Source: a virus
Lineage: Duplodnaviria > Heunggongvirae > Uroviricota > Caudoviricetes
IMG/VR virus record: IMGVR_UViG_3300029305_003072
DNA length: 64,000 bases
Strand: one strand, 5' to 3'
The notes beneath the pieces were generated by a model. It did no database searches, was not told the DNA's origin, and was given only the letters and a program-made list of their open reading frames with translations. Positions within the stretch are counted from its first letter, which is position 1. Every line of letters begins with the position of its first letter. Of this stretch, positions 11,160-29,305 are shown in pieces. A program made the position numbers and the translations under genes.

Positions 11160-11223
11160 AGAATTCAACCTCCTTTCATGTAGACCACCAACTATTTATT
11201 TGAAAAATGTTTCAAATCAATTA

Positions 11224-11541
11224 TCACTCCTTGGCATGAAAAAATTCATAATGTCGAGGACCGTTATAACAAATCAAGGTTCTTTTAATAACGCAATCGA
11301 CGAATTCTTCACTGCACCGGGAGTCAATCCAAGCATAATTGGAGCGAATACCTCTACTAGACTCGCTAGCACTAGCAACTCTCCATATGTCGCCATTCTC
11401 AAACTCAACCCAAGAATTTTGACGAGAATAAACTTCTCTAGTAGGATTAATACCAGACCAAATATATCTATCTCTGATATATTTTAGTTTTTCAATTCCA
11501 TCACCCGCTCTATCATAAGACCAGATAACACCTTTCATCAT
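11224..11541 (-). CDS. Hypothetical protein, 105 aa
   Basis: ORF only. Confidence 0.35.
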   Translation of the reverse strand: MMKGVIWSYDRAGDGIEKLKYIRDRYIWSGINPTREVYSRQNSWVEFENGDIWRVASASESSRGIRSNYAWIDSRCSEEFVDCVIKRTLICYNGPRHYEFFHAKE

Positions 11542-12641
11542 AAAACAATCCTCTCTTTAAATAGCTTTAAAAATGTATCGGGGCCGCAGTCAATCGGACT
11601 GTCCTTATAACCAGTAATCATGTTCTTATCAAAAATAAATGAAATCAAAACAAAGGTCTTATATTTATCTCTTAATCTTACTAAATTAGTCTTTAAATGT
11701 TTAAATTCTTCATCACCGATTTCTTGGAACTGTCTATCAAATGCGACAATAATTTCTTCGGCGCCAGCTTCTATGAGCATTTGTATCTGGTATGATGACA
11801 CACTCGACCCGCAGCACGCAACCGAAATATCATTTTCCAATCCAAAATATGATTGATATAACAAACAAGATTTTTCACCTTCAAAAATAATCGCTTTCTT
11901 CATCAGTTTGATATTATCTTTACTATTGTTGAAATTATATAAATTCATTCCAAGAGGATGATTATATAACTCACGATTAATTCTCATAGGTCTATACTTG
12001 CCGAATCGCTCGCCCTCTTCCGCACATAGTGTTCGCCCACGCAAACCTATAAATCGACCATCTTTGTCGAAGTGCGGAATTGTGATTTGGTCTCCTCCTG
12101 GATAATAACCAATTCTTGCTTGGTCAAGTGCGGCTTGGGTAATACCCTCCCGCAACCAGGGACCTATCTTCACAGAGTAGTTGAAGCGTTCCAATATATC
12201 ATTTTCATATTCTTTTAAGACGACCGTGTTGGTTTTCACAACAACATCTTGAATACGCTCGTAGTTAGCAAGGTATTTCCAATCGTCTAATGCTTCATCT
12301 TCTGGACGGTCTTCATGGTCGCCAGAAAATCCAAATCGTTGGGCAATCCACCTAACTGCGTCATTTAGGTCGAACTCTTTATCCCATTGGATTTTAGCGA
12401 CCTTAGTAGTTAGTTCGAAAATATCAAAGTAGCTATCACAACCTGTATAACAACGAAACAACCCAGTATTTTCATAGTAATATAATTTTCTACTTCCTTC
12501 ACCGGGAGGGTTGTGGCAGATGGTAGTGGAGGTAAACCCGAACACTTCACGTCCAGGGTCTCCACCCCATTCCTGCAACAAATCGTATATATTTTCGTCT
12601 GTTAGAGCTTCTCTGATTTTCGTTTTGTCAAATACTAACAT
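11538..12641 (-). CDS. dnaG: DNA primase (DnaG-like: zinc ribbon plus Toprim)
   Basis: CHNPPGEGSRKLYYYENTGLFRCYTGC zinc ribbon and a Toprim IIFEGEKS motif. Confidence 0.8.
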   Translation of the reverse strand: MLVFDKTKIREALTDENIYDLLQEWGGDPGREVFGFTSTTICHNPPGEGSRKLYYYENTGLFRCYTGCDSYFDIFELTTKVAKIQWDKEFDLNDAVRWIAQRFGFSGDHEDRPEDEALDDWKYLANYERIQDVVVKTNTVVLKEYENDILERFNYSVKIGPWLREGITQAALDQARIGYYPGGDQITIPHFDKDGRFIGLRGRTLCAEEGERFGKYRPMRINRELYNHPLGMNLYNFNNSKDNIKLMKKAIIFEGEKSCLLYQSYFGLENDISVACCGSSVSSYQIQMLIEAGAEEIIVAFDRQFQEIGDEEFKHLKTNLVRLRDKYKTFVLISFIFDKNMITGYKDSPIDCGPDTFLKLFKERIVL

Positions 12642-13075
12642 TAATTAATATCAACAAGAACCTTGACGCAGAATCCTTTCAAACCGCACTCGCGGTTTAC
12701 ATAATCACACAGAATCTCCTGTGCGGGCTTGGGCAACTTACCGCTCTTAGTCTTGGCGTCATTGAGAATCTGCTCAGCCATGACCTTGCCCATCTTGTAC
12801 TCGAAAGTGCCGGCGCAAACATCAGGAGCGGGAATGGTGTCACGCTTCTTGTTAAAAGCTCCGTCCAAACGAGGTGTATTGTTATTGGGCTTGCGGTTAT
12901 TGTTTCTCTTGCCGTTATTATTCTTCTTTACAAACTCTGCCATATCATTAATCTCCTTTTTATCAATAATTCCAAAATCGGAATCGTGTAACAAATTTAA
13001 TTTACTTCTTGAGCCACGCTCAATCTTCGCACTCGAAAGCTGACTCTTCATCGATTCTAATACGAACATCATCAA
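12641..13075 (-). CDS. Hypothetical basic protein
   Basis: ORF with an Asn/Lys/Arg-rich segment. Confidence 0.35.
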   Translation of the reverse strand: MMMFVLESMKSQLSSAKIERGSRSKLNLLHDSDFGIIDKKEINDMAEFVKKNNNGKRNNNRKPNNNTPRLDGAFNKKRDTIPAPDVCAGTFEYKMGKVMAEQILNDAKTKSGKLPKPAQEILCDYVNRECGLKGFCVKVLVDIN

Positions 13076-14561
13076 TACTCACCATTTCATAATCATATGT
13101 GGTGCAGAACATTGGTTTAATTCGGCAAACACCCAAATCAGCCTTACACCACAAAATTACACCCTTGTATCGTCCTCGTCTATTTTTATAAATAGACATC
13201 TTAATTGTAGGTCTTTCAAAAATATTAGAGGACAATATATTTTCCAGAGATACCAAATCATCATCTTTTACAGACAACAAAATAGAACCATAGTCAATCT
13301 TATCCGCAATGGCTTTCGCACCACGCAGTAAGTTCTGGTCGGGAGTTTTACTATCTTGGTAATCACCGTTCAACTGGGTTGCTGACATAATAAACACACC
13401 ATACTGATTACAAATGTCTTTTAAACGAGTTGACAGCATGAATAGAATATTATCTTCTCTCAACTTAACGCCACCAGAACGCTTTGTGATTTCTTCCAAG
13501 ATTTTCAAACTTGTATGAATATAATCGTGGAACACATATTTTACATCATGTTCACGAATATTCTTTTTGATTTTATTTTCAACATCCTGTAGAGAGAAGT
13601 CAGGCAACTCTTCTACATAAATAGGACTTTCTTTTAATAACTTTGCCGCTTGAAGAATTCGTTCCTCTTCGCCTTCGCCATATTCGCCATTAAGAATATG
13701 TTCCTCGTTAACGTTAGATAAGAACGCAAGCATCATAGTTTGAATTTCTTCAAGTTCCTGCTCTGTTGTGATGAATAAAACTGGCTCGGCAGGGCCACTA
13801 CCAATCCATCCAAAAGTTTCATCGTAAATCTTATTACAACCAATATAGCAGCAGTCCGCAATCATTGAACGAGTTTTACCGATACCGGTTGCCGCAGAAC
13901 GAAGATAGAATTTCTTCAATCTTGCGCCACGAGTAACTGTATTAATAAGCGGGCCATATAGAGGTACACCGACTTCTGGATGCTCTTTGAATTTTTCAAT
14001 CAAATCAAAAATTCCATCACCGGCTTGCTGTGCTTCTCCAAAAGCGTCATCAACATATTGAAGTCGAATATCATCAATCTTTTTATCAACTTTATCAGCA
14101 ATTTCTTCCAAAGTTGAATTATCTAATTGGTCCTCTTGGAGTTGCTTTTTCTTTGTATCTAAAATATTATCTGCGTCATAAATATCGGTAACATCAATTC
14201 CGCAGTTATCAAATGCACGAAGTAAAGAGAATTTCTTTAATCGTCCATAATAGTAATCAAATGCTGATGGCATTGCGTTTTCTGAAATCTTCAGTAACCA
14301 CTCTTCGCCCTTGCCTTGCTTATATACCGCAGCACTCTTGGGTCTTGACGATAAGAAATCGGAGATACTCTCCAATGTGATTTTATTCGCACCCAATTCA
14401 TGGATTTTATAAATCGCACCAAAAACAGTTTTATGGAAAGGGTCTGCGAAATCTTCATCGACAATTGAATATCTATCAGTCGCTTCCAGAAGCTGAGGGG
14501 TATTAAACACGCAGCCAATTACCTGCATAATCGCAGTTGTATCTACATACTTACTGCCCAT
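13020..14561 (-). CDS. dnaB: Replicative DNA helicase DnaB-like
   Basis: N-terminal DnaB fold and RecA-like core LRSAATGIGKTRSM. Confidence 0.8.
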   Translation of the reverse strand: MGSKYVDTTAIMQVIGCVFNTPQLLEATDRYSIVDEDFADPFHKTVFGAIYKIHELGANKITLESISDFLSSRPKSAAVYKQGKGEEWLLKISENAMPSAFDYYYGRLKKFSLLRAFDNCGIDVTDIYDADNILDTKKKQLQEDQLDNSTLEEIADKVDKKIDDIRLQYVDDAFGEAQQAGDGIFDLIEKFKEHPEVGVPLYGPLINTVTRGARLKKFYLRSAATGIGKTRSMIADCCYIGCNKIYDETFGWIGSGPAEPVLFITTEQELEEIQTMMLAFLSNVNEEHILNGEYGEGEEERILQAAKLLKESPIYVEELPDFSLQDVENKIKKNIREHDVKYVFHDYIHTSLKILEEITKRSGGVKLREDNILFMLSTRLKDICNQYGVFIMSATQLNGDYQDSKTPDQNLLRGAKAIADKIDYGSILLSVKDDDLVSLENILSSNIFERPTIKMSIYKNRRGRYKGVILWCKADLGVCRIKPMFCTTYDYEMVSIDDVRIRIDEESAFECED

Positions 14562-15321: not shown

Positions 15322-16293
15322 TTACATTAGGTCAGACTTAATGTCAGCAACAATCAAGCTAACGAATTCAGCCTGCTCAGGAGTGGTGTCTCCTACCTTC
15401 TTGCCCTTGCCAAGATATCTCTCAACAATAGCAGTAATCTTGGGGCCGTTGGTAGTACCCTTACTCATTAGCTGACCGACCAAGTCCTGGAATTCAGCCA
15501 TCAGAGCATCGTAATCATAAGTTACCGCAGTAGGAGCAACAATGCGCTCGCTAGTTACGAACTGACCAGCAGTTTCAGCGGCTTCCTTGTCAATAGCTTC
15601 ATTCAAAGCATTAACAAGATTCTTGTAGCTCATAACAATTTCAGTAGGCATATACTTGAAACGGCAGCCGCACTCAATAGTACCAGAAGCATCACGCAGA
15701 GTCAGAACAGACATCTCACCTGCGGCCTTCTGATGAGCATAACCGTAAATATCAGCCATACCAGCGATAACAGTCTTGGTGGAGTTGCTTAGAGTAGGAC
15801 GAATCTTCAAAGTCTTAGTACCATCGGGATTATCAATGGATTCGGGCTTATCGTGTCCAATGAAGAATACTGCATAACCCAACTGAGTCAAGCCACGGAA
15901 TACTTCATTAAACTCTTCCTTGAACTTAGTCCAACCTTTACCGTAGCCAAGGTCACCTAAGTCCTCAATGCCATTCTGATTGCAGATATACTTCTTACAA
16001 CGGTCGGCAGCGATGTCAATAGTGTCAATAATAACACAGCGATACATCTCCTGAACACGAGGGTCCTTCAACTGACGGTACAGCTGCTTCATTTCGGCCC
16101 AGGAAGTAACATCCTGTGCCATAACACCAGGCAATGCGTGATAACCAGGTTCGAAAGCAACTAGAAGGGCCTTATCCATCTGTACGGCAAGAGTAGTCTT
16201 GCCGCACTTAGGAGCGCCGTAAATATATGTGATGTAACCACTTAGGTCACGAGAAACTTTATGAGGCTGTAGAGCCAATAAATCAATTGCCAT
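15322..16293 (-). CDS. Sak4-like RecA-family ATPase (phage recombination/annealing)
   Basis: Walker A YIYGAPKCGKTTLA. Confidence 0.6.
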   Translation of the reverse strand: MAIDLLALQPHKVSRDLSGYITYIYGAPKCGKTTLAVQMDKALLVAFEPGYHALPGVMAQDVTSWAEMKQLYRQLKDPRVQEMYRCVIIDTIDIAADRCKKYICNQNGIEDLGDLGYGKGWTKFKEEFNEVFRGLTQLGYAVFFIGHDKPESIDNPDGTKTLKIRPTLSNSTKTVIAGMADIYGYAHQKAAGEMSVLTLRDASGTIECGCRFKYMPTEIVMSYKNLVNALNEAIDKEAAETAGQFVTSERIVAPTAVTYDYDALMAEFQDLVGQLMSKGTTNGPKITAIVERYLGKGKKVGDTTPEQAEFVSLIVADIKSDLM

Positions 16294-16316
16294 GTTTATG
16301 TCCTCCTCAGTTTAAA

Positions 16317-17255
16317 TTAGAAATTAAATCCGCCCTGAGCAGGAGCTGCGGCCTTAGGAGCAGCGTTACGAGATGCCTTATATTCATCCTGACGCTTCTT
16401 CATAGCAGCCAAATCAACCTCACGCTTCTGGATAGCTTCATTCAGCTCAGCAGCAGTGATAGAACTCTCGTCGTCCCATACGTAAGGCTCCTTAGCTGCG
16501 CCAGTGATGACGAAATCACGACGAGTATTCTTAACCTCACGAACCTCGTCCTCACCGAATGCGGACTCAGTTACAATCTGACGAACAACGACTTCAGATA
16601 CCTGACGTCCCCAAACACAAGTGAACACAGGATTCTTCTGAGAAGCCTCAAGACTCTCAAAATATCTCATAGCGTTAGGATTAGTAGCGCTGAACTCAAT
16701 AGGAAGCAAACTCTTACGGAAGTCGAAGATAGCACCCTTAACAATGCACTTCTCAGGCAGGTTCTTCTCATCGTCAGCATCAATATGCTTTACAGAAGTG
16801 ATAACCATATCAGCCTTGAAAGTGTTACGAACCTTTTCATCTTCGTCCAAGGCATCAACCTTATGAACGAAACCGCCTTCGTTACGCTTTGCAGAAACAA
16901 GCTCTTCCTTACCATTACGGTCGGTATAGAACTCATTTAGACCCAATGCAGAGTCAACGCGAAGCTTAACGGCCTTATCAGCACCATCCTTCATATAAGA
17001 ACCGAAAGTGCCATTAATGATATTACTCAAAGTAGTGAAAGTATCATTGGGCTTGCCGGAACCGAAAGTTGCAGTCACATAAGTGAAATGAACTGGAACA
17101 ATATTAGTCATAGCATCATCAGTTGCAATGCTGATAGTACCAGAAATGAACTTGGTTCCAGGATTCTTGGAGGTCTCTCCAGACTCCTTCAAAGTTAAGT
17201 CATGCTCATACAAAATACCCTCAATGTGAGTCTGATTAATCATAGTCTTTTTCAT
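16317..17255 (-). CDS. Putative ssDNA-binding protein (the usual partner of Sak4)
   Basis: It sits directly downstream of the Sak4-like gene. It has a C-terminal AAPKAAAPAQGGFNF tail ending in Phe, as in gp2.5-like SSBs. The domain assignment is weak. Confidence 0.35.
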   Translation of the reverse strand: MKKTMINQTHIEGILYEHDLTLKESGETSKNPGTKFISGTISIATDDAMTNIVPVHFTYVTATFGSGKPNDTFTTLSNIINGTFGSYMKDGADKAVKLRVDSALGLNEFYTDRNGKEELVSAKRNEGGFVHKVDALDEDEKVRNTFKADMVITSVKHIDADDEKNLPEKCIVKGAIFDFRKSLLPIEFSATNPNAMRYFESLEASQKNPVFTCVWGRQVSEVVVRQIVTESAFGEDEVREVKNTRRDFVITGAAKEPYVWDDESSITAAELNEAIQKREVDLAAMKKRQDEYKASRNAAPKAAAPAQGGFNF

Positions 17256-18194: not shown

Positions 18195-19100
18195 TTAAAT
18201 TCCCAACTCCAATTTCAATTGTGGCTTCATAGGTTCATAATTCTCCATAGTGAAGTCATCAATTGTCATTTCAAAAAAGTTAGTTGCGTTTGGATTCAAT
18301 ACGAGCATTGGCTTGCGTTGCTTTTTCCATTCTTCGGGGTCTGACTGGAATTTCTCCCAATCAGCGTTAGATTTTTCATCAAAGCGACGAAGCATTTCAT
18401 CAGCAGCCTCAAGATGACGGTCATAAATCTGCTCATTAGCAACAACGTGAGTAAAAACGCCGGGCTGATAACCAGTATGACGAGCAATCATCATTAGTAA
18501 TGCAGCATATTGAATTTCATTAATTCCACCGGGGCCAGAAGCAGTAAGCATATCACCACTACGCTGAACAAGCATCATATCCAGGTACTCGCCACGAACA
18601 TTCCAAATAGTAAGGAACGCACATGGAGCTAAGCCAGGAGTCTCATGCAAGTCAGTTTCTTGCCATAGTGAAACAATCTTGCGGCGACCATATGGGTCAT
18701 TTTTAATATCTTCAATCAAATTATTGATTAAATCATAGCGGTCTACGGTTGCACCATATCGTTGTCCGATAGTGCCATCGCCAATATCCCATTCATCCCA
18801 CCAGGTAACTCCACGCTCATGCATCTCTTTGATGTTATTGGTTGGATGCTGATAAATCGTGAAAATTTCTCTAATACCAGTTTTCCAAGCCTGGGGTCTT
18901 AGAGTGCAAATGGGGAAATTACCTCTACTCAAATCATAAGTTCTAAAAGTATGATTTACAGAGTAGGTGTGTGCGGGAGTGCCGTCCGCATAATGAGGGC
19001 GGGGATTTTCATCCTTATATCCGTATTCTTTGATTTCCTTAATCATTGAATACATATACTGGTCAGCATTAGAAATAATTTTCATATTCTCAATCCTCAT
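18195..19100 (-). CDS. thyA: Thymidylate synthase ThyA
   Basis: Canonical ThyA length and motifs (PCHxxxQ-like region, RRKIVSLWQ). Confidence 0.9.
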   Translation of the reverse strand: MRIENMKIISNADQYMYSMIKEIKEYGYKDENPRPHYADGTPAHTYSVNHTFRTYDLSRGNFPICTLRPQAWKTGIREIFTIYQHPTNNIKEMHERGVTWWDEWDIGDGTIGQRYGATVDRYDLINNLIEDIKNDPYGRRKIVSLWQETDLHETPGLAPCAFLTIWNVRGEYLDMMLVQRSGDMLTASGPGGINEIQYAALLMMIARHTGYQPGVFTHVVANEQIYDRHLEAADEMLRRFDEKSNADWEKFQSDPEEWKKQRKPMLVLNPNATNFFEMTIDDFTMENYEPMKPQLKLELGI

Positions 19101-19362
19101 TTGACAAACTATATCCAGTTAATTTACAATCAATGTAATTTTGAACAAAAACTTCCAGTTCATCAATCATTACATCACCTTCGTACTCGCCATTAAAGAG
19201 CTGACTATAACTGATAAATTCAATACCAGTAATGCCATATGCGTGAGCTTTTGCTCTCATGGCATGTGGATTCATACAGGCAATTGCGGAATTAGTTTCC
19301 TTTGCCAAAAGCATCAATCTACTTGTCTTGCCGGAACTACGGCTATCAATAATACGATACAT
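19090..19362 (-). CDS. Hypothetical protein, 90 aa
   Basis: ORF. Its RBS AAAGGAG overlaps the stop codon of the upstream gene. Confidence 0.35.
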   Translation of the reverse strand: MYRIIDSRSSGKTSRLMLLAKETNSAIACMNPHAMRAKAHAYGITGIEFISYSQLFNGEYEGDVMIDELEVFVQNYIDCKLTGYSLSNED

Positions 19363-19375
19363 AAATTAACTCCTT

Positions 19376-20368
19376 TTATTTAATACTATATCCAAACTCT
19401 TTTGCTTTAAAATAATCTTGCCAGTAATCTTCTCTCTCGTCCAGTCTGGAACGGTCGCACTCTTCAACAACCTCGAAAGTGAAGTTCTCGGGTCCGGCCG
19501 CAATCATTGCAGGATATAATTTATTACGAGTGGGTGCGTCTGCACCTACACCTCGTTTAATATGCTATTTCCAGCGGTCTGCTAAATTGGCAGCCTAACC
19601 AACATAACATTTTCCAGAAGAGATTTCAGTAATTTTATAAATTCCAGTATGAACACCAGAACCAATAACTCTACCAATCATATCTGTCGTTGGTTTTTCA
19701 TAATAGCATTTCCAAATAACCTTATTTAAAGGTTCTTTATCACGCAAATAAGGTTCTACCTCACGCAGAAGCTCAATTTCGTGGAGGTCTGCGGCAGAAA
19801 GCTAAATGCGATAGTAGTCTTGTTGGTCTTTCATTTCTTCTGCTCTCTTGGCTGCGGCAACTGCGGCATCGTTTGTAGCACGCATAATAGCCACATTTCC
19901 TTCAAGAGCTTTATACTATTCCATCAAGCCAGCTACGGTTTCTTGATACTATACTTCAAAAGAAGCGACATTCTTTTGATATTTCTATGCTTCAAGCTCC
20001 AAAGAGCGAGCCAGATTTTCTTGAGCGACTTCCATTTTTGAACTATAAAATAAATCTGCGGCTTCTTGAGCCTGCTTTTCCATAGCTGTAATACTACTAT
20101 TTAATGTGTTAATCTATTCAATGGTTGAGTCCTTTTGGAGCAACAACCTACTATTTTCTTCTGTTAGTCGTTTAGTTTCAGCTTCAAGCCATATGCGGCC
20201 CTCTTCGGCTAAACGATTCTACTCCTAAATTCTTTCGTTCTCTTTGGCAGTCTGCGCATCCAACTCCAGCGCCGCGTGAATGCGGGGACGCAGAATGCGA
20301 TATACAACATATCCCGTAATAAGGGACGACAAGATGAACGAAATTAGAAAAATAAGTAATTCCACCAT
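19376..20368 (-). CDS. Membrane-anchored coiled-coil GIY-YIG nuclease-domain protein, 330 aa, with 9 in-frame TAG codons
   Basis: Own translation: an N-terminal TM helix (MVELLIFLISFILSSLITGYVVYRIL), then about 200 aa of coiled coil, then a C-terminal GIY-YIG domain: GIYKITEISSGKCYVG*AANLADRWK*HI...ENFTFEVVEECDRSRLDEREDYWQ...GYSIK. Stop is TAA at 19376-19378. Confidence 0.6.
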
Positions 20369-20424
20369 ATGGAAGAAAAATGGGGTAAGATATTTAATAT
20401 CTTACCCCTTAGTATATGTCAAAA

Positions 20425-20700
20425 TTACTCAGCAGCTTCTTCAGTTGCGTCAGGGTCGAAGCTCATGCCTGCAGGAGTCAGAGACAGGAACTTAACCTGC
20501 TTGTGAGTACCATCCTCTAGCTCGATTTCAGCGGGAGTACGAACACCCAAGCCCTTACGCTGAATAGCGGAAGTAAAGATGCCATCAACAGAGCGCTTCT
20601 CTAGACCCAGAGCAGCAGCAACGTCAGCAGCAGTTACGTTCTCGCCGTTAATCTCCTTCAAATAATTCAGAACCTTCTTGGAATTTTCCTTCATAGCCAT
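20425..20700 (-). CDS. Hypothetical small DNA-binding-like protein
   Basis: ORF with its own promoter. Confidence 0.35.
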   Translation of the reverse strand: MAMKENSKKVLNYLKEINGENVTAADVAAALGLEKRSVDGIFTSAIQRKGLGVRTPAEIELEDGTHKQVKFLSLTPAGMSFDPDATEEAAE

Positions 20701-20771
20701 AGTAAATAATCTCCTTCTTAATAAATAATATTTTTTTAGTTTATATTTTCTAACCTCTCGGTTATGTAAAT

Positions 20772-20800
20772 ATTATATCAAAAAATTTTTGAAAAGTCAA
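20772..20800 (-). promoter_or_regulatory. Promoter TTGACT-N17-TATAAT
   Basis: Upstream of gene 20425..20700. Confidence 0.6.
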
Positions 20801-20809
20801 GAATTTTTT

Positions 20810-21001
20810 TTAATTTTTCTCAAGCAGTTCCATCACAAGCTCGTCAATAGCGACCATATCTTCCAGTCTATCGACGGAACTTGAGAGACGCATAATTTCT
20901 TCTTCTGCTTGATGAACGGCTTTCTTATCATCGCTCGTTTGAATGATTCGTTCGCACTTAGCGATTTTTACAGCCAGATTCTTGAGTTCTTTTTTCTTCA
21001 T
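20810..21001 (-). CDS. Hypothetical coiled-coil protein, 63 aa
   Basis: ORF with its own TTGACA promoter. Confidence 0.3.
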   Translation of the reverse strand: MKKKELKNLAVKIAKCERIIQTSDDKKAVHQAEEEIMRLSSSVDRLEDMVAIDELVMELLEKN

Positions 21002-21033
21002 TGAAAATTTTCATCCTTAATCTTTACGATTTT

Positions 21034-21062
21034 ATTATACAAAATTTTTTTCTTTTTGTCAA
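21034..21062 (-). promoter_or_regulatory. Promoter TTGACA-N17-TATAAT (perfect consensus)
   Basis: Upstream of gene 20810..21001. Confidence 0.6.
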
Positions 21063-23054
21063 TTACTCGATTCCAAAAGTCTGAATGAAGTCAGATTCTG
21101 ACAAGATTGGAATCCCCAATGACTTGGCAGTCATGTTCTTAGAGGAAGTGGAATTCACATCATTGTTAATGAGGAAATTTGTGTTCTTAGAAACAGAACC
21201 AGTTACCTTTCCTCCAAGAGCCTCAATTCGTGCCTTGATTTCATCACGGTTCTTGAAATGAGTGAGTTTTCCAGTAATTACAAAAGTTTTTCCAGTTAAA
21301 CTCTCGCCGACCGGGGCGGGAGCGACTTCAGGTGCATTAAAGTGAATATAATGGTCAGCAAGTAGTTTTGCTTCGGCATAATTAAAGCTAACTAAACTAT
21401 TATGCATTTCACCACCGAAATTAGGAAGAGTGTAGAAAGCGAAACCACCTTCCGCTGCCTCGACAAACTTTTCCCAAGTTTCAAAGTGCTTTGCCAATTC
21501 TTTCGATGCCGTTGAGCCAATCAACGGAATACCGAGGGCCGCAATGAACTGATGTAGTTCACAATTTGCGCCAGTATTAATAGCGTTCAGAACCTTCTCG
21601 ACGGATTTGGCTCCAAATCCAGGCTTCTGGACCCATTCACTTCTACGAATGGAAAGTTCAAAAATGTCAGTAAAATCATTGACCCAACCCCAATCAATCA
21701 GTTTCTCTAAAGTTGCCTTTGAGATACCCTTCATATCAAGACCTTTCTTACCGCAGAAGTGGTCCAGACGATTGATTAGTTTACCAGGACAAGTTGGAGA
21801 GACACAGGTCAGATTCATAGAGTCATTCAACTTACTATACTTGACCTCACCGCCGCACACAGGACAACAATTGGGGCGTTCAAACCAAGGATAATCATAC
21901 TGAGGTAAATCCTCGGGTTCTTCCGCAGACGCAATCTGAGGAATAATCATATTAGCCTTAAAGACGTCCACCTTTTGGCCTTTATAACCCCAACCATGTA
22001 AAGTTTCATTTAGAATACTTACATTGTGTAAGCTAGCTCTTTCTACGGTCGAACCATCTACGTCGATTGGTTCAAAGACAGCAACGGGAGTAAGGACACC
22101 GGTTCTACCCATCGTCCATTCAATATCCAACAAGCTAGTCTGGTAAGTTTCATCATAGAATTTATATGCCAGAGCATTTTTGAAATGATGCGTTGTTTCT
22201 CCAAGAGAACGACCATAAGCACAATCATTAAACTTAATAACTACACCATCAATTGGATAACTATATCCTTGAGCCATTTGAGTCACTTGCTCAATAAACA
22301 TATCCATTTCAACCTCAGTATCATCTGCGTAATAAGCAGGACCAGTCGCATATGGAACTATAGTAAATCCAAAAGGTACAAGATAATTAAGTTTTTGGCT
22401 AAGTTTGTACTCGGTACCATCATCAAACATCATTGGAGTGAGAACATCCCACGCAACAAATGTAAGATTGCGGCTTGCACATTCTTTGGAGTCTAAAAGA
22501 CGAATACTGCCTGCGGCGAAATTTCTAGGGTTCTTATATTCTGAACTGAATTTTTCAAAATCAGTATAGGTGCAAATGATTTCTCCATCAATAACCAATT
22601 CATCCATATAAGGAATTTTACTTGGAATTGAAGGAAGAACTCTTGCATTATGCAGGATATCTTCACCGACAAGACCATTTCCCCTAGTCTCCGCAGAAAC
22701 TAATTCTCCGTTGCGGTAAGTAAGAGAACAAGTTAAACCGTCCATCTTACACATAGCCAAGAAGTCCTTTTTACCTACAAAAGCAGAAACTTCATCAACG
22801 GATTTAGTTTTTTCAAGAGATAACATCTTATGAGAATGTTCAACTTTTTTCAAAGCATTTACAACTTCATAAGAAATAGATTGAGTAGGAGAATTAGATA
22901 AAATCAAACCTGTTTCTTTTTCTAATTCTTGTAACTCAAAATATTTATTATCCCATTCTTCGTCCGTAATTTTTGGATTACCTTCATCGTATGCTTTTGT
23001 ACATTCGTTAAGGTATCTTACAAGAAACTTGATTTTATCATAGATACTATCCAT
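21063..23054 (-). CDS. ligA: NAD-dependent DNA ligase LigA
   Basis: Adenylation motif KMDGL, OB fold, the Zn finger CPVCGGEVKY, HhH, and a C-terminal BRCT. Confidence 0.9.
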   Translation of the reverse strand: MDSIYDKIKFLVRYLNECTKAYDEGNPKITDEEWDNKYFELQELEKETGLILSNSPTQSISYEVVNALKKVEHSHKMLSLEKTKSVDEVSAFVGKKDFLAMCKMDGLTCSLTYRNGELVSAETRGNGLVGEDILHNARVLPSIPSKIPYMDELVIDGEIICTYTDFEKFSSEYKNPRNFAAGSIRLLDSKECASRNLTFVAWDVLTPMMFDDGTEYKLSQKLNYLVPFGFTIVPYATGPAYYADDTEVEMDMFIEQVTQMAQGYSYPIDGVVIKFNDCAYGRSLGETTHHFKNALAYKFYDETYQTSLLDIEWTMGRTGVLTPVAVFEPIDVDGSTVERASLHNVSILNETLHGWGYKGQKVDVFKANMIIPQIASAEEPEDLPQYDYPWFERPNCCPVCGGEVKYSKLNDSMNLTCVSPTCPGKLINRLDHFCGKKGLDMKGISKATLEKLIDWGWVNDFTDIFELSIRRSEWVQKPGFGAKSVEKVLNAINTGANCELHQFIAALGIPLIGSTASKELAKHFETWEKFVEAAEGGFAFYTLPNFGGEMHNSLVSFNYAEAKLLADHYIHFNAPEVAPAPVGESLTGKTFVITGKLTHFKNRDEIKARIEALGGKVTGSVSKNTNFLINNDVNSTSSKNMTAKSLGIPILSESDFIQTFGIE

Positions 23055-23079
23055 TTCTATTCTCCTTAATTACATATAT

Positions 23080-23108
23080 ATTATAGAAAAAATTTTTTAT
23101 TTTGTCAA
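23080..23108 (-). promoter_or_regulatory. Promoter TTGACA-N17-TATAAT
   Basis: Upstream of ligA. Confidence 0.6.
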
Positions 23109-23380
23109 CTCCAGAAATCACTGAAGTCAAATATATTGACATAAAAATCTGGAACATCTTCTACTAATTGGACTCTATAACCATATACAAACATAGGTTC
23201 ATCAAAAAACATAATTTTATCATTTGGATTTATATTAATTCGATGTAAAATTTGAGCAAAAGTAAAATCGTTCATTCTGATTTCAATACCATTTTGTTCG
23301 CCAAACCACTCATAGAGTCGGGACATTTCTCGTCCCGACTCAACGATAGGCATACTTGGTCTGAAATAAATCGTTCTCAT
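23105..23380 (-). CDS. Hypothetical protein, 91 aa
   Basis: ORF only. Confidence 0.3.
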   Translation of the reverse strand: MRTIYFRPSMPIVESGREMSRLYEWFGEQNGIEIRMNDFTFAQILHRININPNDKIMFFDEPMFVYGYRVQLVEDVPDFYVNIFDFSDFWS

Positions 23381-25752
23381 ACCTTACTTACAGATAGAAC
23401 TTTACTATTCTTGATAACAACATTGCCAATAGAAGCTCTACCAAGGTTTGGAATTTCGGATGCTTCGATACAAATACTGCTCTTATCACCCAAAATCAAT
23501 ACACAATCACTATCTTCAACAAGGGTTGCCGCAACCACTTTACCAGTAGTATCAGTAGGCTTATAACACATCAGACCCTTACCTGCTCTCTTCTGGAGAG
23601 GAAGTTCGTCAAGACCAAACTTCTTACAGTATCCACCATTAACGAAGATTGCCAATTTATCATTTGTATTACGGACAGGAATTGCGGCGACAATTTCATC
23701 ATCGGCACCCAAGTTAATACCCTTTACACCAGAAGTGGCACGAGAAGTAGGACTTACTTCCTTAGAATCAAATCTAATTGCCATACCATTCTTAGTTACC
23801 AGGATTAACTGTTCGTCCTTAACCAAAGATACTGCGGCAAGCTCATCACCATCTTTAATGGTAATTGCTGCAATGCCAGTCTTTTTCTTAGTCTTAACAT
23901 ATTCTTCAAGACTTGTTTTCTTAACTAATCCATTTTTAGTTACGAACAATACATATGCAGCATCAGTATCTCTATAAATAGAATACATTACAGCAGGCTG
24001 TTCATCCATATCCATATTGATTAGGGACTTGATAGACTGACCCTTACTTACATTGGTTCCTACTGGAACATCATTGACAAGTAGACGATACATCTTGCCC
24101 TTATCAGAGAAAATCATCAAAGAGTCAATCGTATTAGTACGAATTACTGCATGAGTAATATCATCTTGAGTTTTTACACCCTTACCATTTCGCTTCTGGG
24201 TACGGAAGCTAGTTGCAGGAATTCTCTTAACGAGACCACCCTCAGTCATAATAACAACACACTTCTCTGGCTCGACGAATTCGATTTCCTTCTCTTCCTT
24301 AGTGGAAGCAACCTGAGTTATAGTGCTTCTGCGAGCGTCGCCATAAGTCTTTTTAAGTTCTGTAAAACCCTTAACTAACTCTGGCGTTGGATTTTGCAGA
24401 ATTCCCTGTAGTCTCTCTAACTCAGATATAAGCTCAGCTCTTTCATTTTCAATCTCAACTTTCTCTAATTTTGCCAACTTAGAAAGCTTCATATCAAGAA
24501 TCGCCTTAGCCTGGGCTTCAGAGAAACCATACTGGTTCATAAGAACAACCTTAGCAGCTGCCGCAGACTCGCTCTTCTTAATAAGAGCAATGATATTGTC
24601 AATATCTTCAAGAGCCTTCAACAGACCTTCCAAGATATGAATACGAGCCGCAACTTTATTAGCTTCATATTTAGTTTTTCTCAACAGAACATCTTTCTGG
24701 TGAGCAATATAAATTTCCAAAAGTTGCTTAATATTCAAAAGCTGAGGTTTCTTCTCAACCAGAGCAACCTGATTGAAACTATAAGTATCCTCTAAGCGAG
24801 TTAATTTAAACAACTTTGCGATAATAGGTTCAGCAGAAATTCCCTTTGCTAATTCAATAACGAAACGCACACCATCTTTGTTACTTTCGTCTCGGATGGT
24901 AGTAATTCCTTCCAATTTACCTTCCTCACAAAGCTTATCAATTTCCTTTACAAGGTCTTCTTTAGATACCTTATAAGGAATGGAAGTAAAGACGATACTA
25001 TCGCCACGTTTATCAGATTCAATTTTGTACTCTCCTCTGATTCTTGCTCTGCCCTTACCTGTTAGATAAGCTGCGGGTAATTCGTCTTTGTTAATAATTA
25101 ATCCGCCAGTTGGGAAATCAGGTCCGGAAATGTAATTCAAAATTTCCTTAATATCACAATTAGGGTTTTGAGTTACATGGATTGCCGCATCCATAACTTC
25201 ATTTAAATTGTGAGGTGCGAAGCTACAAGCCATCGCAACTGCGATACCAGAAGTACCATTCACAATCAAATTGGGAATACGACCAGGCAGATAGACTGGC
25301 TCTTCTTCCACATCGGTATATGCTAATTGCCAATCGACAGTATCTTTCTTAATATCAGCAAGCATTTCTTCGCCTGCTTTAGATAGTTTACATTCAGTAT
25401 AACGATAAGCTGCAGCCTCGTATCCATCACGTGAACCATTATTACCATGGAAAGAGATAAGAGGGTATCTCATATTCCAAGGTTGACTCAACCACACTAA
25501 CGCACCATAAATAGAAGCATCGCCGTGAGGATGGAAACGACCCATCGTATCACCGACTGGTTGAGCACATTTTACAAACTTTTTATTATTATGATAACCC
25601 TTATCGAACATATCCCAAAGAATACGACGAGCAACAGGTTTCAAACCATCTTCCGCTGAAGGGATGGCTCTATCGGTAATAACACTCAAACTATAATCAA
25701 GGAAACTTTGCTCAACTTCCCCGATAATCGGAGTCTGAATTATATCTCCCAT
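23377..25752 (-). CDS. Type II topoisomerase A subunit (GyrA/ParC-like)
   Basis: Active-site region AAAYRYTECKLS around the catalytic Tyr, plus C-terminal beta-pinwheel repeats. Confidence 0.85.
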   Translation of the reverse strand: MGDIIQTPIIGEVEQSFLDYSLSVITDRAIPSAEDGLKPVARRILWDMFDKGYHNNKKFVKCAQPVGDTMGRFHPHGDASIYGALVWLSQPWNMRYPLISFHGNNGSRDGYEAAAYRYTECKLSKAGEEMLADIKKDTVDWQLAYTDVEEEPVYLPGRIPNLIVNGTSGIAVAMACSFAPHNLNEVMDAAIHVTQNPNCDIKEILNYISGPDFPTGGLIINKDELPAAYLTGKGRARIRGEYKIESDKRGDSIVFTSIPYKVSKEDLVKEIDKLCEEGKLEGITTIRDESNKDGVRFVIELAKGISAEPIIAKLFKLTRLEDTYSFNQVALVEKKPQLLNIKQLLEIYIAHQKDVLLRKTKYEANKVAARIHILEGLLKALEDIDNIIALIKKSESAAAAKVVLMNQYGFSEAQAKAILDMKLSKLAKLEKVEIENERAELISELERLQGILQNPTPELVKGFTELKKTYGDARRSTITQVASTKEEKEIEFVEPEKCVVIMTEGGLVKRIPATSFRTQKRNGKGVKTQDDITHAVIRTNTIDSLMIFSDKGKMYRLLVNDVPVGTNVSKGQSIKSLINMDMDEQPAVMYSIYRDTDAAYVLFVTKNGLVKKTSLEEYVKTKKKTGIAAITIKDGDELAAVSLVKDEQLILVTKNGMAIRFDSKEVSPTSRATSGVKGINLGADDEIVAAIPVRNTNDKLAIFVNGGYCKKFGLDELPLQKRAGKGLMCYKPTDTTGKVVAATLVEDSDCVLILGDKSSICIEASEIPNLGRASIGNVVIKNSKVLSVSKV

Positions 25753-26146
25753 AAGGAACCTCCTTTATCTCTACAAAATCTTTCAAAAAATTTTCTTCTG
25801 TCCAATTCGATTTCATTGTATTACTAATAACTTCCTCAACTAAATCAAAAATACTACACTTATCTTCTGGTGTCATATATGAATATTGAGTAGGAAGTTC
25901 TCGTAACCTCTCAAGCATATAAGGTGGAATAGCTAAGGCACGAACTGCAGTATGTGCGGCTTCTGCTACGCCTTCTGGAATCCGCACATATTTTCGTTCC
26001 AAATCTTCTTTCCATAACTTATCTATTGGAGGTTTAATACATTGCATTTTTTCTGAATACTTAGTTATATGTGGCATATGCTTCTTCCTCAGAAATATAA
26101 CCAGTAGCAAGCTGGTCAGCAAGTTCATTCCATTCATGTCCAGCAT
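25712..26146 (-). CDS. Hypothetical protein (true start may be internal)
   Basis: ORF overlapping the topo A start. Confidence 0.3.
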   Translation of the reverse strand: MLDMNGMNLLTSLLLVIFLRKKHMPHITKYSEKMQCIKPPIDKLWKEDLERKYVRIPEGVAEAAHTAVRALAIPPYMLERLRELPTQYSYMTPEDKCSIFDLVEEVISNTMKSNWTEENFLKDFVEIKEVPYGRYNSDSDYRGS

Positions 26147-26537
26147 GACCTTTGATTTTTCTCAAATCAATACGAAAACCTTGCTTATACCAATCATAAT
26201 AGGCTTGAATTAAATCAAGATTTTCGGGAACTTTTTTATCACTTTTAACCCAACCATTTCTTGCCCAATTAAACATCCATTCATTGAAAGTATTTACACA
26301 ATATGCGGAGTCGCTATATACAATCGGAGGCTGGCCCCAATCATCGCATTTTTCTCCATAATTAAGCATAACATATAGAATAGCTTTCAATTCTTCTCTA
26401 TTATTGGTAGTTCCATTTGTTCTCTTGGCACGGACGAACTGAACACAATCATTTTCGTCAACGCCAACAATGCCGTAACCACCACTTGCGTTCACTTTTC
26501 CGTTCCCAACGCAGGAACCATCAGTATAGAAAATCAT
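26061..26537 (-). CDS. rnhA: Ribonuclease HI
   Basis: TDGSC...NNREELKA...YSDSAY...KGHAGHEWNELADQLA. Confidence 0.8.
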   Translation of the reverse strand: MIFYTDGSCVGNGKVNASGGYGIVGVDENDCVQFVRAKRTNGTTNNREELKAILYVMLNYGEKCDDWGQPPIVYSDSAYCVNTFNEWMFNWARNGWVKSDKKVPENLDLIQAYYDWYKQGFRIDLRKIKGHAGHEWNELADQLATGYISEEEAYATYN

Positions 26538-26925
26538 TCGGGTTTCCTTTCAATAGTTCTTCAAACATTTTATCTACATCAATTGTTGATAAAATATCAA
26601 CTGTATCACTAATTTTTTCAGTTTCGCCTCGTAGAACTGTAATACCCTTCAAAATGTGGTCATTACATAAAATTACTGTATTATTTGGAAAAGTTTCATT
26701 CATTTCTTTTTGAATTGTTTGACACTCTCTCAAACTTAAATTATCAGCAATTTTAAGTAAAATTACATCATTTGGTTGAATATTTACAACCTGGAAAGGA
26801 TAACCAGTATACTTACCGATTACCCCACCAAAAATAGATGCTTTATTTGTATCAGCATAAGTATATTGTCTACGATTCTCCATAGAGATTACATTAGTAG
26901 CGTTGGTCATAAATATAACCTCCAT
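26521..26925 (-). CDS. Hypothetical protein, paralogous to the next gene
   Basis: Shares an NVI..GD.IL..I.D...N.VIL...K.ITVL pattern with ORF 26894..27130. Confidence 0.4.
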   Translation of the reverse strand: MEVIFMTNATNVISMENRRQYTYADTNKASIFGGVIGKYTGYPFQVVNIQPNDVILLKIADNLSLRECQTIQKEMNETFPNNTVILCNDHILKGITVLRGETEKISDTVDILSTIDVDKMFEELLKGNPNDFLY

Positions 26926-27130
26926 CTAAAAACATATTACTTGTTCCTGTTAGTTCACGCTTAAATACAGTCACATCTTTAATTGCATATTCAGGCATTA
27001 AAACTATATTAGGAGTATTTAATAGGCTAATTAGCTTTTCACTAATCGCCTTATATTCATCAATATCAACATCATCACCAATGGTGAATAAAATTGTATC
27101 ACCAGGAGCAACTTTAATTACATTCGCCAT
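26894..27130 (-). CDS. Hypothetical protein, paralog of 26521..26925
   Basis: Same pattern as the previous gene; a tandem duplicate. Confidence 0.4.
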   Translation of the reverse strand: MANVIKVAPGDTILFTIGDDVDIDEYKAISEKLISLLNTPNIVLMPEYAIKDVTVFKRELTGTSNMFLDGGYIYDQRY

Positions 27131-27374
27131 AATAAAATTCCTCCATATCTTTCAACATTTCATTGAATTTTTTACTTTCATCGGGATGTGCGGCTTTATA
27201 TAAATTGACACTAGCCTCTGTCTTAAATGGGCCAATAACACTTTGAGGGCAATTTAATAGACAATATTCATCCATTAAATCTTGAGCTTGGATGATTTTA
27301 TCATCGCCCAAATCCCAAAACCAATATCCATGATACTCAGACATCGATATTTGCCCTCCAAGCGTTATCTTCAA
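27114..27374 (-). CDS. Hypothetical protein, 86 aa
   Basis: ORF only. Confidence 0.3.
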   Translation of the reverse strand: MKITLGGQISMSEYHGYWFWDLGDDKIIQAQDLMDEYCLLNCPQSVIGPFKTEASVNLYKAAHPDESKKFNEMLKDMEEFYYGECN

Positions 27375-29232
27375 TAAACTTCTTACGAGGAGTTACAGAC
27401 TCACCCATTAAGCTCATAAAGACATTTGCCACGGCGGCCGCATCTTCCATGGTAATCTGCTTTAAAGTACGAGTCTCCGCACTCATAACAGTTTCAGCCA
27501 TTTCATCAGGGTCCATTTCACCTAGACCCTTCATACGACCAAGTTCAAATTTCTTACTATTGGTTTTGCGGAATTCTTCAAGAGCAGCATCATCCTTTAA
27601 ATACTGGATTTTAGTTCCAATAGTTGCTTTATATAGTGGAGGTACAGCGGCATAAATATATCCCTTATCCAGTAGGTCTGGACAGAACTTCCAAATAAAA
27701 GTTAGGAATAGAACACGAATATGAGAACCATCAACATCAGCATCTGCGGTAATGATGAATTTACCATATCTCAACTTAGTTTCATCAACGATAATCTTAC
27801 CGTCCTTAACTTCTAAACCAAAAGCATCAACCATACCGCTGATTTCTTTATTCTGAAGAGCCTTATGTAGGTCGCACTTCAAAACATTTAGCGGCTTACC
27901 ACGAAGTTGGAATACTGCTTGAGTACCTCTGTCACGAGCTTCAATTGTTGTACCTGCAGCAGATTTACCCTCAACAATAAAGACTTCACATTTGTGACGC
28001 TCTTTAGAGCTGGCATCCGCAAGTACGTCAGGCATAATCACACGACGCTTGTTGTCAACTTTACGAACGGTTTCCTTGGCCTTTTTAGCTTTTTCACGGG
28101 CTGCACGTGCCAAAAGTGCTTTATCAACAATGGCTTTTGCGTCTTTGGGATTTGCGTCGAGCCATACTCGGATTTCACGGGCGGTTAAACGCTGAACCGC
28201 AGTTCTTGCTTCACTACTGGAAAGAACATCTTTCGTCTGGCCGGAGAAAACAGGGTCAGGCATAATGAAGGATAGAACCAGAACCAAACCTTCCTTCAAT
28301 TCTTCACCAGTAATATTAGCATCTTTCTCCTTTAGGAGCTTATTATCACGAGCATAGTCATTCATAGTTTGCGTGAGTGCGGTTCTAAAACCGGTTAAGT
28401 GGGTTCCCGCACTATTAGGAATAGAGTTGGTATAGAGCTTATACATATCAGTATAAGTATCATTATACTGCATAGCAATCTTAACACCAATTCTATCTTC
28501 CATATTTTCAGTATAGAATACGGAAGTTACCTTATTTTTATCTTTATTTAAATCATTGATATAATCTCGAATACCATTTTGAGAAGTGATAACTTCTTCT
28601 TCTTTATCTTCATATTTGAAGTTAAACACCATACCAGGAGATAGATAAGCTAGCTCTTGGATTTGTTTCTTTAGTGGGGCATATTCAAGACGAATTCCTT
28701 CTTTGAAGATAGTCTCATCGGGCTTGAAACTGATTGTAGTTCCGTGTAGTCCCTTTGTAAAAGGTTGCTCTTCATAAGATTTCAATTCACCTTTTTCAAA
28801 AACTGCGTAAGCAGATTTTCCATCACGCACAGATTCAACAGCAAAATAAGAAGATAGAGCATTTGTAGCCTTGGCACCGACACCGTTCATACCACCAGAA
28901 GTGTTATAACCAGTTTTACCATCACTATCAAATTTTGCGCCTGTATGAAGTTTTGTATAAACATTCACCAGAGTTTCACTACCATCTTCAGCTTTTCCAA
29001 ACGGAACACCACGACCATTATCTGCGATACGAATAACTCCATCGGAGCCAACCGTAATAATACAGTTAGTGCAATGTCCGTTTAAGTATTCATCAACTGC
29101 GTTAGAAATGATTTCGAGTGTGATGTGTCTAACACCATCAGGTCCAACTGAACCGATATACATACCTGGACGTAGTCGGATAGCTTCGATACCTTCTAGT
29201 GTTTTTATGTCTTTTACACCATAATCTGACAT
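27337..29232 (-). CDS. Type II topoisomerase B subunit (GyrB-like ATPase plus Toprim)
   Basis: GHKL ATPase motifs (EIISNAVDE, GLHGTT-like region) and a Toprim EGKSA motif. Confidence 0.85.
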   Translation of the reverse strand: MSDYGVKDIKTLEGIEAIRLRPGMYIGSVGPDGVRHITLEIISNAVDEYLNGHCTNCIITVGSDGVIRIADNGRGVPFGKAEDGSETLVNVYTKLHTGAKFDSDGKTGYNTSGGMNGVGAKATNALSSYFAVESVRDGKSAYAVFEKGELKSYEEQPFTKGLHGTTISFKPDETIFKEGIRLEYAPLKKQIQELAYLSPGMVFNFKYEDKEEEVITSQNGIRDYINDLNKDKNKVTSVFYTENMEDRIGVKIAMQYNDTYTDMYKLYTNSIPNSAGTHLTGFRTALTQTMNDYARDNKLLKEKDANITGEELKEGLVLVLSFIMPDPVFSGQTKDVLSSSEARTAVQRLTAREIRVWLDANPKDAKAIVDKALLARAAREKAKKAKETVRKVDNKRRVIMPDVLADASSKERHKCEVFIVEGKSAAGTTIEARDRGTQAVFQLRGKPLNVLKCDLHKALQNKEISGMVDAFGLEVKDGKIIVDETKLRYGKFIITADADVDGSHIRVLFLTFIWKFCPDLLDKGYIYAAVPPLYKATIGTKIQYLKDDAALEEFRKTNSKKFELGRMKGLGEMDPDEMAETVMSAETRTLKQITMEDAAAVANVFMSLMGESVTPRKKFIEDNAWRANIDV

Positions 29233-29276
29233 ATCGTTCTCCTTTCAAATTTCTTAAGATTTTTTCTTATGTGTAT

Positions 29277-29305
29277 ATTATACCAAAGATTTTTTAGAAA
29301 ATCAA
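29277..29305 (-). promoter_or_regulatory. Promoter TTGATT-N17-TATAAT (TGg extended -10)
   Basis: Upstream of the topo II B gene. Preceded by a terminator at 29321-29366. Confidence 0.6.

Follow-up and report, generated by a model that had tools for sequence, protein, structure and literature searches.

A predicted membrane-anchored GIY-YIG nuclease gene dense in recoded TAG codons within the replication module of a code 15 phage

Introduction

Several features of recoded gut phages have already been published, among them the reading of TAG as glutamine, a split between TAG-rich late genes and TAG-free replication genes, and the proposal that recoded stops hold back a nuclease encoded among early genes. 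For the reading of TAG as glutamine in vivo, proteomic data come from crAss-like phages only (PMC9523058). The 'Caudoviricetes code 15 clade' takes phAss-1 as its type (Babkin et al., 2023; PMC10607447), and the phAss-1 virion genes lie among recoded open reading frames (ORFs) (PMC10607447). In Agate phages, a group I intron endonuclease inside an early gene is TGA-rich and preferentially recoded, and gating of translation by recoded stops has been put forward as a hypothesis for recoded phages (Borges et al., preprint 10.1101/2021.08.26.457843). Here we describe a gene at positions 19376 to 20368, on the minus strand of a 64,000-nucleotide stretch of phage DNA (IMG/VR record IMGVR_UViG_3300029305_003072; the whole stretch is hereafter called the window), that holds nine in-frame TAG codons and is predicted to encode a membrane-anchored GIY-YIG nuclease.

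By protein similarity and gene content, this gut phage is a distant relative of phAss-1 and belongs to the same published clade. It shares with that clade in-frame TAG codons that align with glutamine, phage tRNA(CUA) genes and an SPbeta-like replication module, as well as the pairing of TAG-rich virion genes with TAG-free core replication enzymes. In GenBank, the highest-ranking full-length matches to its polymerase (~38% identity) come from phAss-1 and from SPbeta-type phages of Bacillus and Enterococcus, and among these relatives only phAss-1 has a homologue of the nuclease (39% identity over the C-terminal 44%). Read with TAG as glutamine, the phAss-1 orthologue is 326 amino acids (aa) long, has the same build of transmembrane (TM) helix, stalk and GIY-YIG domain, and contains eight TAGs. 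The phAss-1 paper (PMC10607447) does not mention this gene, and the GenBank record shows its last 144 aa only, as a hypothetical protein. The two phages differ in that their polymerases are just 38% identical, in that phAss-1 is 136 kb long whereas contigs of the lineage studied here reach about 200 kb, and in that a nucleotide search of the region against GenBank phages gave no match.

The Agate endonuclease offers the nearest parallel for the recoding itself. Both are nucleases among early or replication genes, both have far more recoded stops than their neighbours, and in both the product would wait for the code switch. In the Agate phages, however, TGA is read as tryptophan and the endonuclease is an intron passenger with a DNA-binding tail, whereas here TAG is read as glutamine and the gene is conserved, syntenic and endowed with a predicted membrane anchor and stalk.

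Results

TAG codons in an otherwise intact gene

With TAG treated as a sense codon, the minus-strand ORF contains nine TAGs and zero internal TAA or TGA codons (Table 1). A first-pass annotation of this DNA, which did not give the strand, had counted nine TAGs in 331 codons; the nine are there, and the 331 resolve into 330 sense codons and the TAA terminator. The TAG-to-Gln translation has over 100 full-length matches, proteins that are 319-338 aa long and 71-98% identical to it. An exhaustive search returned 493 clusters (50% identity) at E <= 1e-30, all of them from metagenome assemblies and none usefully named; among ten distant cluster representatives that were looked up, names were attached only to two truncated fragments ('chromosome segregation ATPase' and 'hypothetical protein').

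The DNA of the homologues is likewise untranslatable by the standard code. A 95% identical copy (L001-3) has 11 TAGs, a 75% identical copy (L004-6) has 12, and counts among IMG/VR homologues run from 0 to 18. Neither frameshifts nor non-TAG stops were found in the homologue DNA of L001-6 and phAss-1. Five TAG sites are common to the window and L004, and elsewhere TAG faces CAA, CAG or another residue. The most conserved TAG site, codon 258, is glutamine in 78 of 83 family members and is sense-coded glutamine in the TAG-free homologues P0344 and P0380. Homologues at 39-98% identity retain full length and the conserved motifs, with TAG aligned to glutamine. By these comparisons, the gene is intact and under purifying selection, and TAG is glutamine (code 15) in this phage. 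The first-pass annotation had proposed a search for recoded stops in relatives and had taken frameshifts alongside stops as the mark of a decayed pseudogene; recoded stops are present in the relatives, unaccompanied by frameshifts or other stops.

TAG load relative to other genes

We called the ORFs of the window with TAG read through and counted TAG, CAG and CAA together as Gln-type codons. The minus strand carries nearly all window genes; these contain 30 in-frame TAGs and 594 CAG and CAA codons, and nine of the 30 fall in the nuclease gene. TAG makes up 9 of its 19 Gln-type codons (47%) versus 21 of 605 (3.5%) across the remaining minus-strand ORFs (Fisher P = 2.6e-8; binomial P = 5e-9). 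That essential replication genes have no TAG, as the first-pass annotation had it, is essentially right: seven core genes, encoding Pol III alpha, DnaB, the PIF1-like helicase, NAD ligase, GyrA, GyrB and ThyA, have none, the DHFR gene has one and the RecJ-like gene has two near its 5' end. The sole other window gene with a comparable share encodes guanylate kinase (1664-2233, minus), with TAG at 4 of 9 Gln-type codons.

The excess recurs among relatives. Our recurrence analysis covered 80 IMG/VR loci with homologues at 29-60% identity and the neighbours on the same strand. Wherever a homologue has at least three TAGs, its TAG share lies above that of its same-strand neighbours in every distinct full-length case, save one tie at 14% (L106). 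Examples are 11/29 versus 6/192 (L038), 9/30 versus 3/64 (L093), 18/30 versus 11/91 (L051) and, at a further locus, 16/32 versus 36/203. Loci where the homologue has no TAG are uninformative, as their neighbour counts probably include real TAG stops merged by the read-through ORF caller. Distant members with no TAG occur in same-synteny relatives (L024-L026), phages that may or may not be recoded. As in the analysis of Borges and colleagues, then, the recoded-stop share stands above the rest of the window and does so repeatedly across the lineage.

In phAss-1, a plus-strand block at ~3.6-35.4 kb holds most of the TAG-rich ORFs. TAG accounts for 29-75% of glutamine codons in the larger TAG-rich ORFs and for 0% in the core replication enzymes; a 3150-aa virion protein has 110 TAG, 114 CAA and 25 CAG codons. 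The 47% share of the nuclease gene falls at the level of these virion genes, and the phAss-1 orthologue is itself a TAG-rich island among core replication enzymes. In recoded lineages, the nuclease gene thus appears, by codon composition, to act like a virion gene and not like its neighbours.

A predicted nuclease on a membrane anchor

Only M-V-E precedes the predicted N-terminal TM helix, and R24, R27 and R29 come after it. Topology can be predicted from such charges by the positive-inside rule; the arginines following the helix predict an N-out, C-in arrangement, with the bulk of the protein in the cytoplasm. Of 68 distinct full-length IMG/VR homologues, nearly all likewise open with a hydrophobic helix. 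The helical stalk that follows contains six of the nine TAGs, and a seventh, at codon 189, lies just past it. Heptad periodicity within stalk residues 30-185 is modest, with a period-3.5 power above that of 93% of shuffles (P ~0.07) and strongest at residues 68-109, so that a coiled coil is likely at best. AlphaFold2 places the two conserved helices beyond the stalk at residues 192-203 and 212-234.

The C-terminal domain matches Pfam PF01541 at 37.5 bits against a threshold of 22.6 (E = 3e-9, residues 242-322). AlphaFold2 predicts a beta-beta-alpha-alpha-beta-alpha GIY-YIG fold over residues 242-319, with a mean predicted local distance difference test (pLDDT) score of 89. This prediction used 83 diverse sequences and a monomer; in an earlier run on 30 close homologues, the C-terminal half had a pLDDT below 50. 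The predicted domain, a three-stranded sheet with flanking helices, is superposable on a solved GIY-YIG domain, and the closest structure is I-TevI. G242, Y244, Y255, G257, R265, H269 and E313 are invariant in the 83 diverse sequences, and motif alignment assigns Y244, Y255, R265 and E313 to Y6, Y17, R27 and E75 of I-TevI. The family consensus further downstream is GYN; this clade has G326-Y327-S328, with serine replacing the equivalent of I-TevI N90. The motifs suggest that the GIY-YIG head has nuclease activity. A DNA-binding module (NUMOD, zinc finger or helix-turn-helix (HTH)) was sought in Pfam, PHROGs and NCBIfam and not found, and the window contains only this one GIY-YIG gene.

Most of this architecture had been anticipated. 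The N-terminal TM helix and C-terminal GIY-YIG domain of the first-pass annotation are both borne out, the latter by the above-threshold profile match and by the structure prediction that it had recommended. Of its coiled coil, the long predicted helix stands, but the heptad periodicity is weak. Its remark that the protein is unlike free-standing homing endonucleases agrees with a C-terminal domain set behind a TM helix and stalk and lacking a DNA-binding module.

Among characterised GIY-YIG proteins, I-TevI carries its catalytic domain at the N-terminus (PDB 1ln0, 1mk0), whereas the window nuclease carries it at the C-terminus, without linker, zinc finger or HTH, with serine at the N90 equivalent and with two extra conserved helices before the domain. 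Similarity to T4 endonuclease II (DenA, PDB 2wsh) and to PD-T4-3 (PDB 9u75), a defence nuclease, is much weaker than to I-TevI, and these two proteins are soluble and without stalk or TM helix, unlike the window nuclease. Uzume (UzuA) resembles the window nuclease in that its GIY-YIG domain is C-terminal and preceded by a helical part; it is a single-gene bacterial defence system, whereas the window nuclease is a phage core gene. The PADLOC UzuA profiles match residues 241-327 (E = 3.5e-8) at profile positions 184-275 of 278, that is, the nuclease domain only, and we rejected UzuA membership in view of the missing full-length match and the better scores of homing-endonuclease profiles. A spanin or holin reading was likewise rejected.

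Signals around the start codon

The short region between the nuclease gene and the gene upstream of it contains a perfect hairpin (Table 1). This hairpin has a T-rich tail, is unique in the window and is kept in L001 and L004, fully so in a relative with diverged flanking coding sequence; by these features it would be a conserved intrinsic terminator. Hairpins of -12 kcal/mol or stronger, 5-28 nt 5' of the start codon, occur at about 50 of 67 homologue loci with differing stem sequences, and a comparable upstream hairpin precedes just 7 of 58 window genes. The window holds no second copy of the 27-nt palindrome, and hence gives no evidence of an operator family.

Beyond the hairpin, the leader has no Shine-Dalgarno (SD) sequence. 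Pairing of the nuclease gene with the anti-SD sequence is the weakest of 56 genes, at +3.6 against a median of -8.3 kcal/mol. A conserved TTGACA and a TATTAA inside the hairpin form a candidate promoter, although the pair falls short of the -10 criterion of our promoter scan. Downstream, the genes for the 90-aa protein, ThyA and DHFR follow gaplessly, with no visible promoter and almost no TAG, and are probably co-transcribed with the nuclease gene. If they do share its transcript, the in-frame stops are the control layer best able to single out the nuclease.

Table 1. Coordinates of the nuclease gene, its TAG codons, its predicted protein parts and the adjoining features (window positions)
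Feature	Coordinates	Strand	Remarks
Complete coding sequence, TAG read as Gln	19376..20368	minus	330 codons + TAA; ATG 20368-20366, TAA 19378-19376
TAG codon 48	20225..20227	minus	a stop here would leave a 47-residue TM peptide
TAG codon 50	20219..20221	minus	
TAG codon 85	20114..20116	minus	TAG likewise in L001, L004
TAG codon 128	19985..19987	minus	
TAG codon 140	19949..19951	minus	TAG likewise in L001, L004
TAG codon 151	19916..19918	minus	TAG likewise in L001, L004
TAG codon 189	19802..19804	minus	TAG likewise in L001, L004
TAG codon 258	19595..19597	minus	Gln following the Y-V-G motif; CAA in L004
TAG codon 268	19565..19567	minus	RWK-Q-H; TAG likewise in L001, L004
Predicted N-terminal TM helix, codons 4-22	20303..20359	minus	LLIFLISFILSSLITGYVV; Kyte-Doolittle 19-residue mean 2.43
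Helical stalk, codons 25-185	19814..20296	minus	predicted cytoplasmic; rich in A/E/L/Q; AlphaFold2: single helix, residues 3-185
Two conserved helices ahead of the nuclease domain, codons 192-234	19667..19795	minus	invariant W219, nearly invariant Y223 and K225
Predicted GIY-YIG nuclease domain, codons 242-330	19379..19645	minus	G242-I243-Y244, Y255-V256-G257, R265, H269, E313, S328
Perfect 12-bp hairpin	20382..20408	minus	GGGGTAAGATAT-TAA-ATATCTTACCCC; -16.4 kcal/mol; between the 91-aa gene and the start codon, 13 nt from ATG
T-rich tail and 13-nt leader	20369..20381	minus	ATTTTTCTTCCAT; no SD sequence
Conserved TTGACA (-35-like)	20417..20422	minus	17 nt 5' of TATTAA (20394-20399) inside the hairpin; candidate promoter
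Upstream neighbour, 91-aa protein	20425..20700	minus	conserved; homologues winged-helix or MarR-like; own TTGACT-17-TATAAT promoter, strong SD
Downstream neighbour, 90-aa gene (phrog_1828)	19090..19362	minus	starts 13 nt past the nuclease stop; then ThyA, DHFR

A source of suppressor tRNA

No tRNA genes were found within the 64-kb window. A contig that is 100% identical to window positions 59834-64000 (L107) extends 9 kb further and carries a tRNA array, in which a clean tRNA(CUA) gene lies at L107 2043-2117, ~7 kb past the window end and in the same genome. Two adjoining tRNA calls with a CUA anticodon occupy L107 2043-2214; the second is odd, being 97 nt long with both CUA-type and CUG-type (Gln) anticodon-loop motifs; it may be either a suppressor with a long arm or a tRNA-Gln(CUG) that carries an insertion. 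In phAss-1 (OQ749652.1, 62445-63985; L011 7443-9010), one small ORF, a tRNA-Leu gene and two tRNA(CUA) genes come after the nuclease orthologue and share its strand. Given this position just upstream of the tRNA(CUA) genes, the nuclease and the suppressors may share a transcript there. Also adjoining the array of L107, at 5663-8073, are a gene for an EcoRI-like methylase and a gene for a GmrSD_N+HNH nuclease, which may bear on DNA modification or counter-defence.

Genomic setting

The genes around the nuclease gene run in the order GyrB, RNase H, GyrA, NAD ligase, two small genes, the nuclease gene, the 90-aa gene, ThyA and DHFR, followed by YorF, YorG (AAA_24), YorH, DnaB, a RecJ-like protein, the PIF1-like helicase and Pol III alpha. 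By this content, the neighbourhood is an SPbeta-type replication module. The syntenic slot of the nuclease (ligase, small genes, nuclease, thymidylate synthase, YorF) is kept in relatives from 98% to ~29% identity. Clostridia are probably the hosts, and binned contigs from a scan of bacterial genomes agree; that scan found only contigs in metagenome-derived bins, many of them 100-176 kb long, with no cultured host and no clear prophage among them.

Two perfect sigma-70 promoters (TTGACA-17-TATAAT; 0.07 expected by chance) lie at 21034-21062 and 23080-23108 (minus). One precedes a 63-aa gene, and the other precedes a 91-aa gene beside the ligase gene. In the close relative L001, a free-standing GIY-YIG homing endonuclease gene at 2845-3534 splits gyrB into pieces encoding 587 aa and 84 aa of GyrB, unlike in the window, where gyrB (27337-29232) is intact. 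An 838-aa protein encoded at window positions 48089-50605 (minus) matches the major-vault-protein (MVP) shoulder domain (PF11978) and uses 36 CAG and 0 CAA codons; its gene is conserved in relatives beside NAD-salvage genes (NAMPT, PncA-like, Prs, NadE, SIR2, NADAR).

A 176-kb relative (L017, IMGVR_UViG_3300024270_000013) encodes, at 136-9980, large repeat-rich proteins with many TAGs on the opposite strand, among them one of 733 aa with 9 TAG, 0 CAG and 7 CAA codons and one of 1244 aa with 7 TAGs. They adjoin sequence that lies just beyond the window's left end in the closer contig L010. These are probably tail or fibre proteins; a PHROGs search of the large TAG-rich proteins gave no assignment.

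The minus-strand genes of the window split into two codon-usage classes. The first (15322-17255, 34834-36342 and 41524-57756) comprises YorG/YorF, a 502-aa gene, NAD salvage, the MVP-like gene, RNA ligase, RNase T and a sigma factor, and uses AAG at 92%, CAG at 97% and CTG at 53%, with a GC content at third codon positions of 0.42-0.58 and with ACA, TCA, CCA, TTA and ATA almost unused. The second (2441-14561 and 18195-33942), with the polymerase, helicases, ligase, gyrase, lysin and nuclease gene, is AT-biased and uses CAA and CAG about equally. A difference in expression level or in origin could underlie the split. Some window genes avoid AAA and CAA almost entirely; we considered escape from an anticodon nuclease as the cause but dropped the idea, since these genes also shun most codons that end in A, a pattern that resembles ordinary codon adaptation.

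Discussion

We think it probable that the gene encodes a functional membrane-anchored GIY-YIG nuclease that can be translated in full only with the help of the phage suppressor tRNA, and that its expression is weak, shut off until the code switch and probably late. The N-terminal helix would sit in the membrane, and the ~160-residue stalk, the two helices and the I-TevI-type GIY-YIG head, in which the catalytic Tyr, Tyr, Arg and Glu are all preserved, would lie in the cytoplasm. Because nine glutamine codons are TAG, translation by host ribosomes served by release factor 1 alone would end at codon 48. Full-length nuclease would appear only once the phage tRNA(CUA) is made and charged, and would then cut DNA close to the membrane. 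It is the conjunction of a virion-like TAG share, TAG-free neighbours, a putative terminator and a missing ribosome-binding site that argues for a weakly expressed nuclease kept off until the code switch. Late timing we infer from the codon signature and the context; the adaptive value of a delay, nuclease activity and the DNA substrate are inferences too. The first-pass annotation had suggested that translation is gated by suppressor availability, for example for late expression; the need of the full-length product for a TAG suppressor, encoded in the same genome, is supported, and late expression is suggested by codon signature and context only. Host DNA degradation and anti-plasmid activity, the other examples that the annotation gave, would be no more than guesses.

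Several observations weigh against this interpretation. ThyA and DHFR are nearly TAG-free and seemingly on the same transcript as the nuclease, so the terminator alone cannot define a late unit. The suppressor tRNAs are in an array on the strand of early and middle genes and may be expressed early, in which case the delay would be short. The protein's role does not depend on TAG, given that members with no TAG exist; nor is TAG confined to classic late functions, given the guanylate kinase (4/9) and DHFR (1) genes. Ser328 stands in place of an asparagine kept by most of the family, so that activity could be altered. Finally, the high TAG share could be a mutational equilibrium in a TAG-tolerant gene.

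That last point leads to the best surviving alternative, which we regard as possible but clearly the less probable account: TAG richness would be a passive by-product in a weakly expressed gene needed only once suppressor is abundant, with TAG, CAA and CAG drifting to mutational equilibrium while earlier-needed neighbours purge TAG, and with no selection for delay. The nuclease TAG:CAA:CAG ratio of 9:8:2 indeed resembles the 110:114:25 of the 3150-aa phAss-1 virion protein, TAG positions turn over (just 5 of 9 are common to L004), TAG-free orthologues exist, and the gene falls in the class that is AT-biased and weakly adapted in its codon usage. Such drift leaves unexplained why, within a run of replication genes, this gene alone tolerates TAG in many lineages at 38-66% identity to the window protein, and why that tolerance coincides with the lack of an SD sequence and with a terminator conserved ahead of the gene; and even under drift the product still could not be made before suppression. 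Passive accumulation and gating are inseparable by sequence alone.

A more elaborate version of suppressor gating is speculative, and we give it only a small chance. Here the gene would be a two-state reader of the genetic code, yielding a 47-residue membrane peptide by the host code and, after takeover by tRNA(CUA), a nuclease held ~20 nm from the membrane on its stalk, where it would destroy host or competitor DNA as this arrives, or process phage DNA. TAG load, terminator and missing ribosome-binding site would then form a selected triple lock on a toxic enzyme that is core to a large group of Clostridia-infecting gut phages.

The head might instead not cut at all, and the protein might be a membrane scaffold that tethers phage or host DNA. 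The phi29 protein p16.7 is a membrane protein of similar layout, and a TM helix, coiled stalk and DNA-facing C-terminal domain within a replication module do recall it; the replacement of the GYN asparagine by serine in this clade points the same way. We nonetheless consider a scaffold improbable, for Tyr244, Tyr255, Arg265, His269 and Glu313 are invariant in 83 diverse members, most of which keep the asparagine, and such conservation is expected for catalysis.

Improbable to a like degree, in our judgement, is a selfish homing endonuclease of the I-TevI kind, silenced by in-frame stops until late as in the recoded intron endonuclease of the Agate phages (10.1101/2021.08.26.457843). This published precedent, the true GIY-YIG homing endonuclease inside gyrB of a relative (L001), the closeness of the I-TevI structure and an above-cutoff match to TIGR01453 'group I intron endonuclease' all speak for it. 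The TIGR01453 match, however, is to the catalytic part alone (profile positions 2-87 of 215), the searches described above revealed neither a NUMOD nor a zinc-finger nor an HTH module, and the nuclease domain comes last, at the C-terminus, after the TM helix and stalk. Furthermore, the gene keeps one syntenic slot from 98% to about 29% identity across hundreds of clusters and interrupts no gene. A decayed pseudogene with nonsense mutations, suggested by nine stops in the standard code and by the 144-aa GenBank fragment in phAss-1, is refuted by stops that are all TAG, the lack of frameshifts, homologues intact in length and motifs at 39-98% identity with TAG aligned to Gln, and a suppressor tRNA in the same genome.

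What is new here is a large unnamed protein family with an unusual GIY-YIG architecture, the recurrent TAG excess in this nuclease family, and the conserved putative terminator and missing SD sequence ahead of the gene. The family comprises at least 493 clusters at 50% identity, is known solely from metagenomes, and combines a predicted membrane anchor and stalk with a GIY-YIG domain in a build that we did not find among characterised nucleases. Annotation by the standard code breaks the gene, as in the hypothetical protein of 144 aa to which it is reduced in the phAss-1 record. Recoded phages are common in the human gut, and the idea that their stops time expression rests on gene-content statistics. 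The nuclease gene offers a sharp test case for that idea, being a single, probably toxic enzyme amid TAG-free replication genes, with a TAG load that recurs across hundreds of related phages and TAG-free orthologues that may serve as natural controls.

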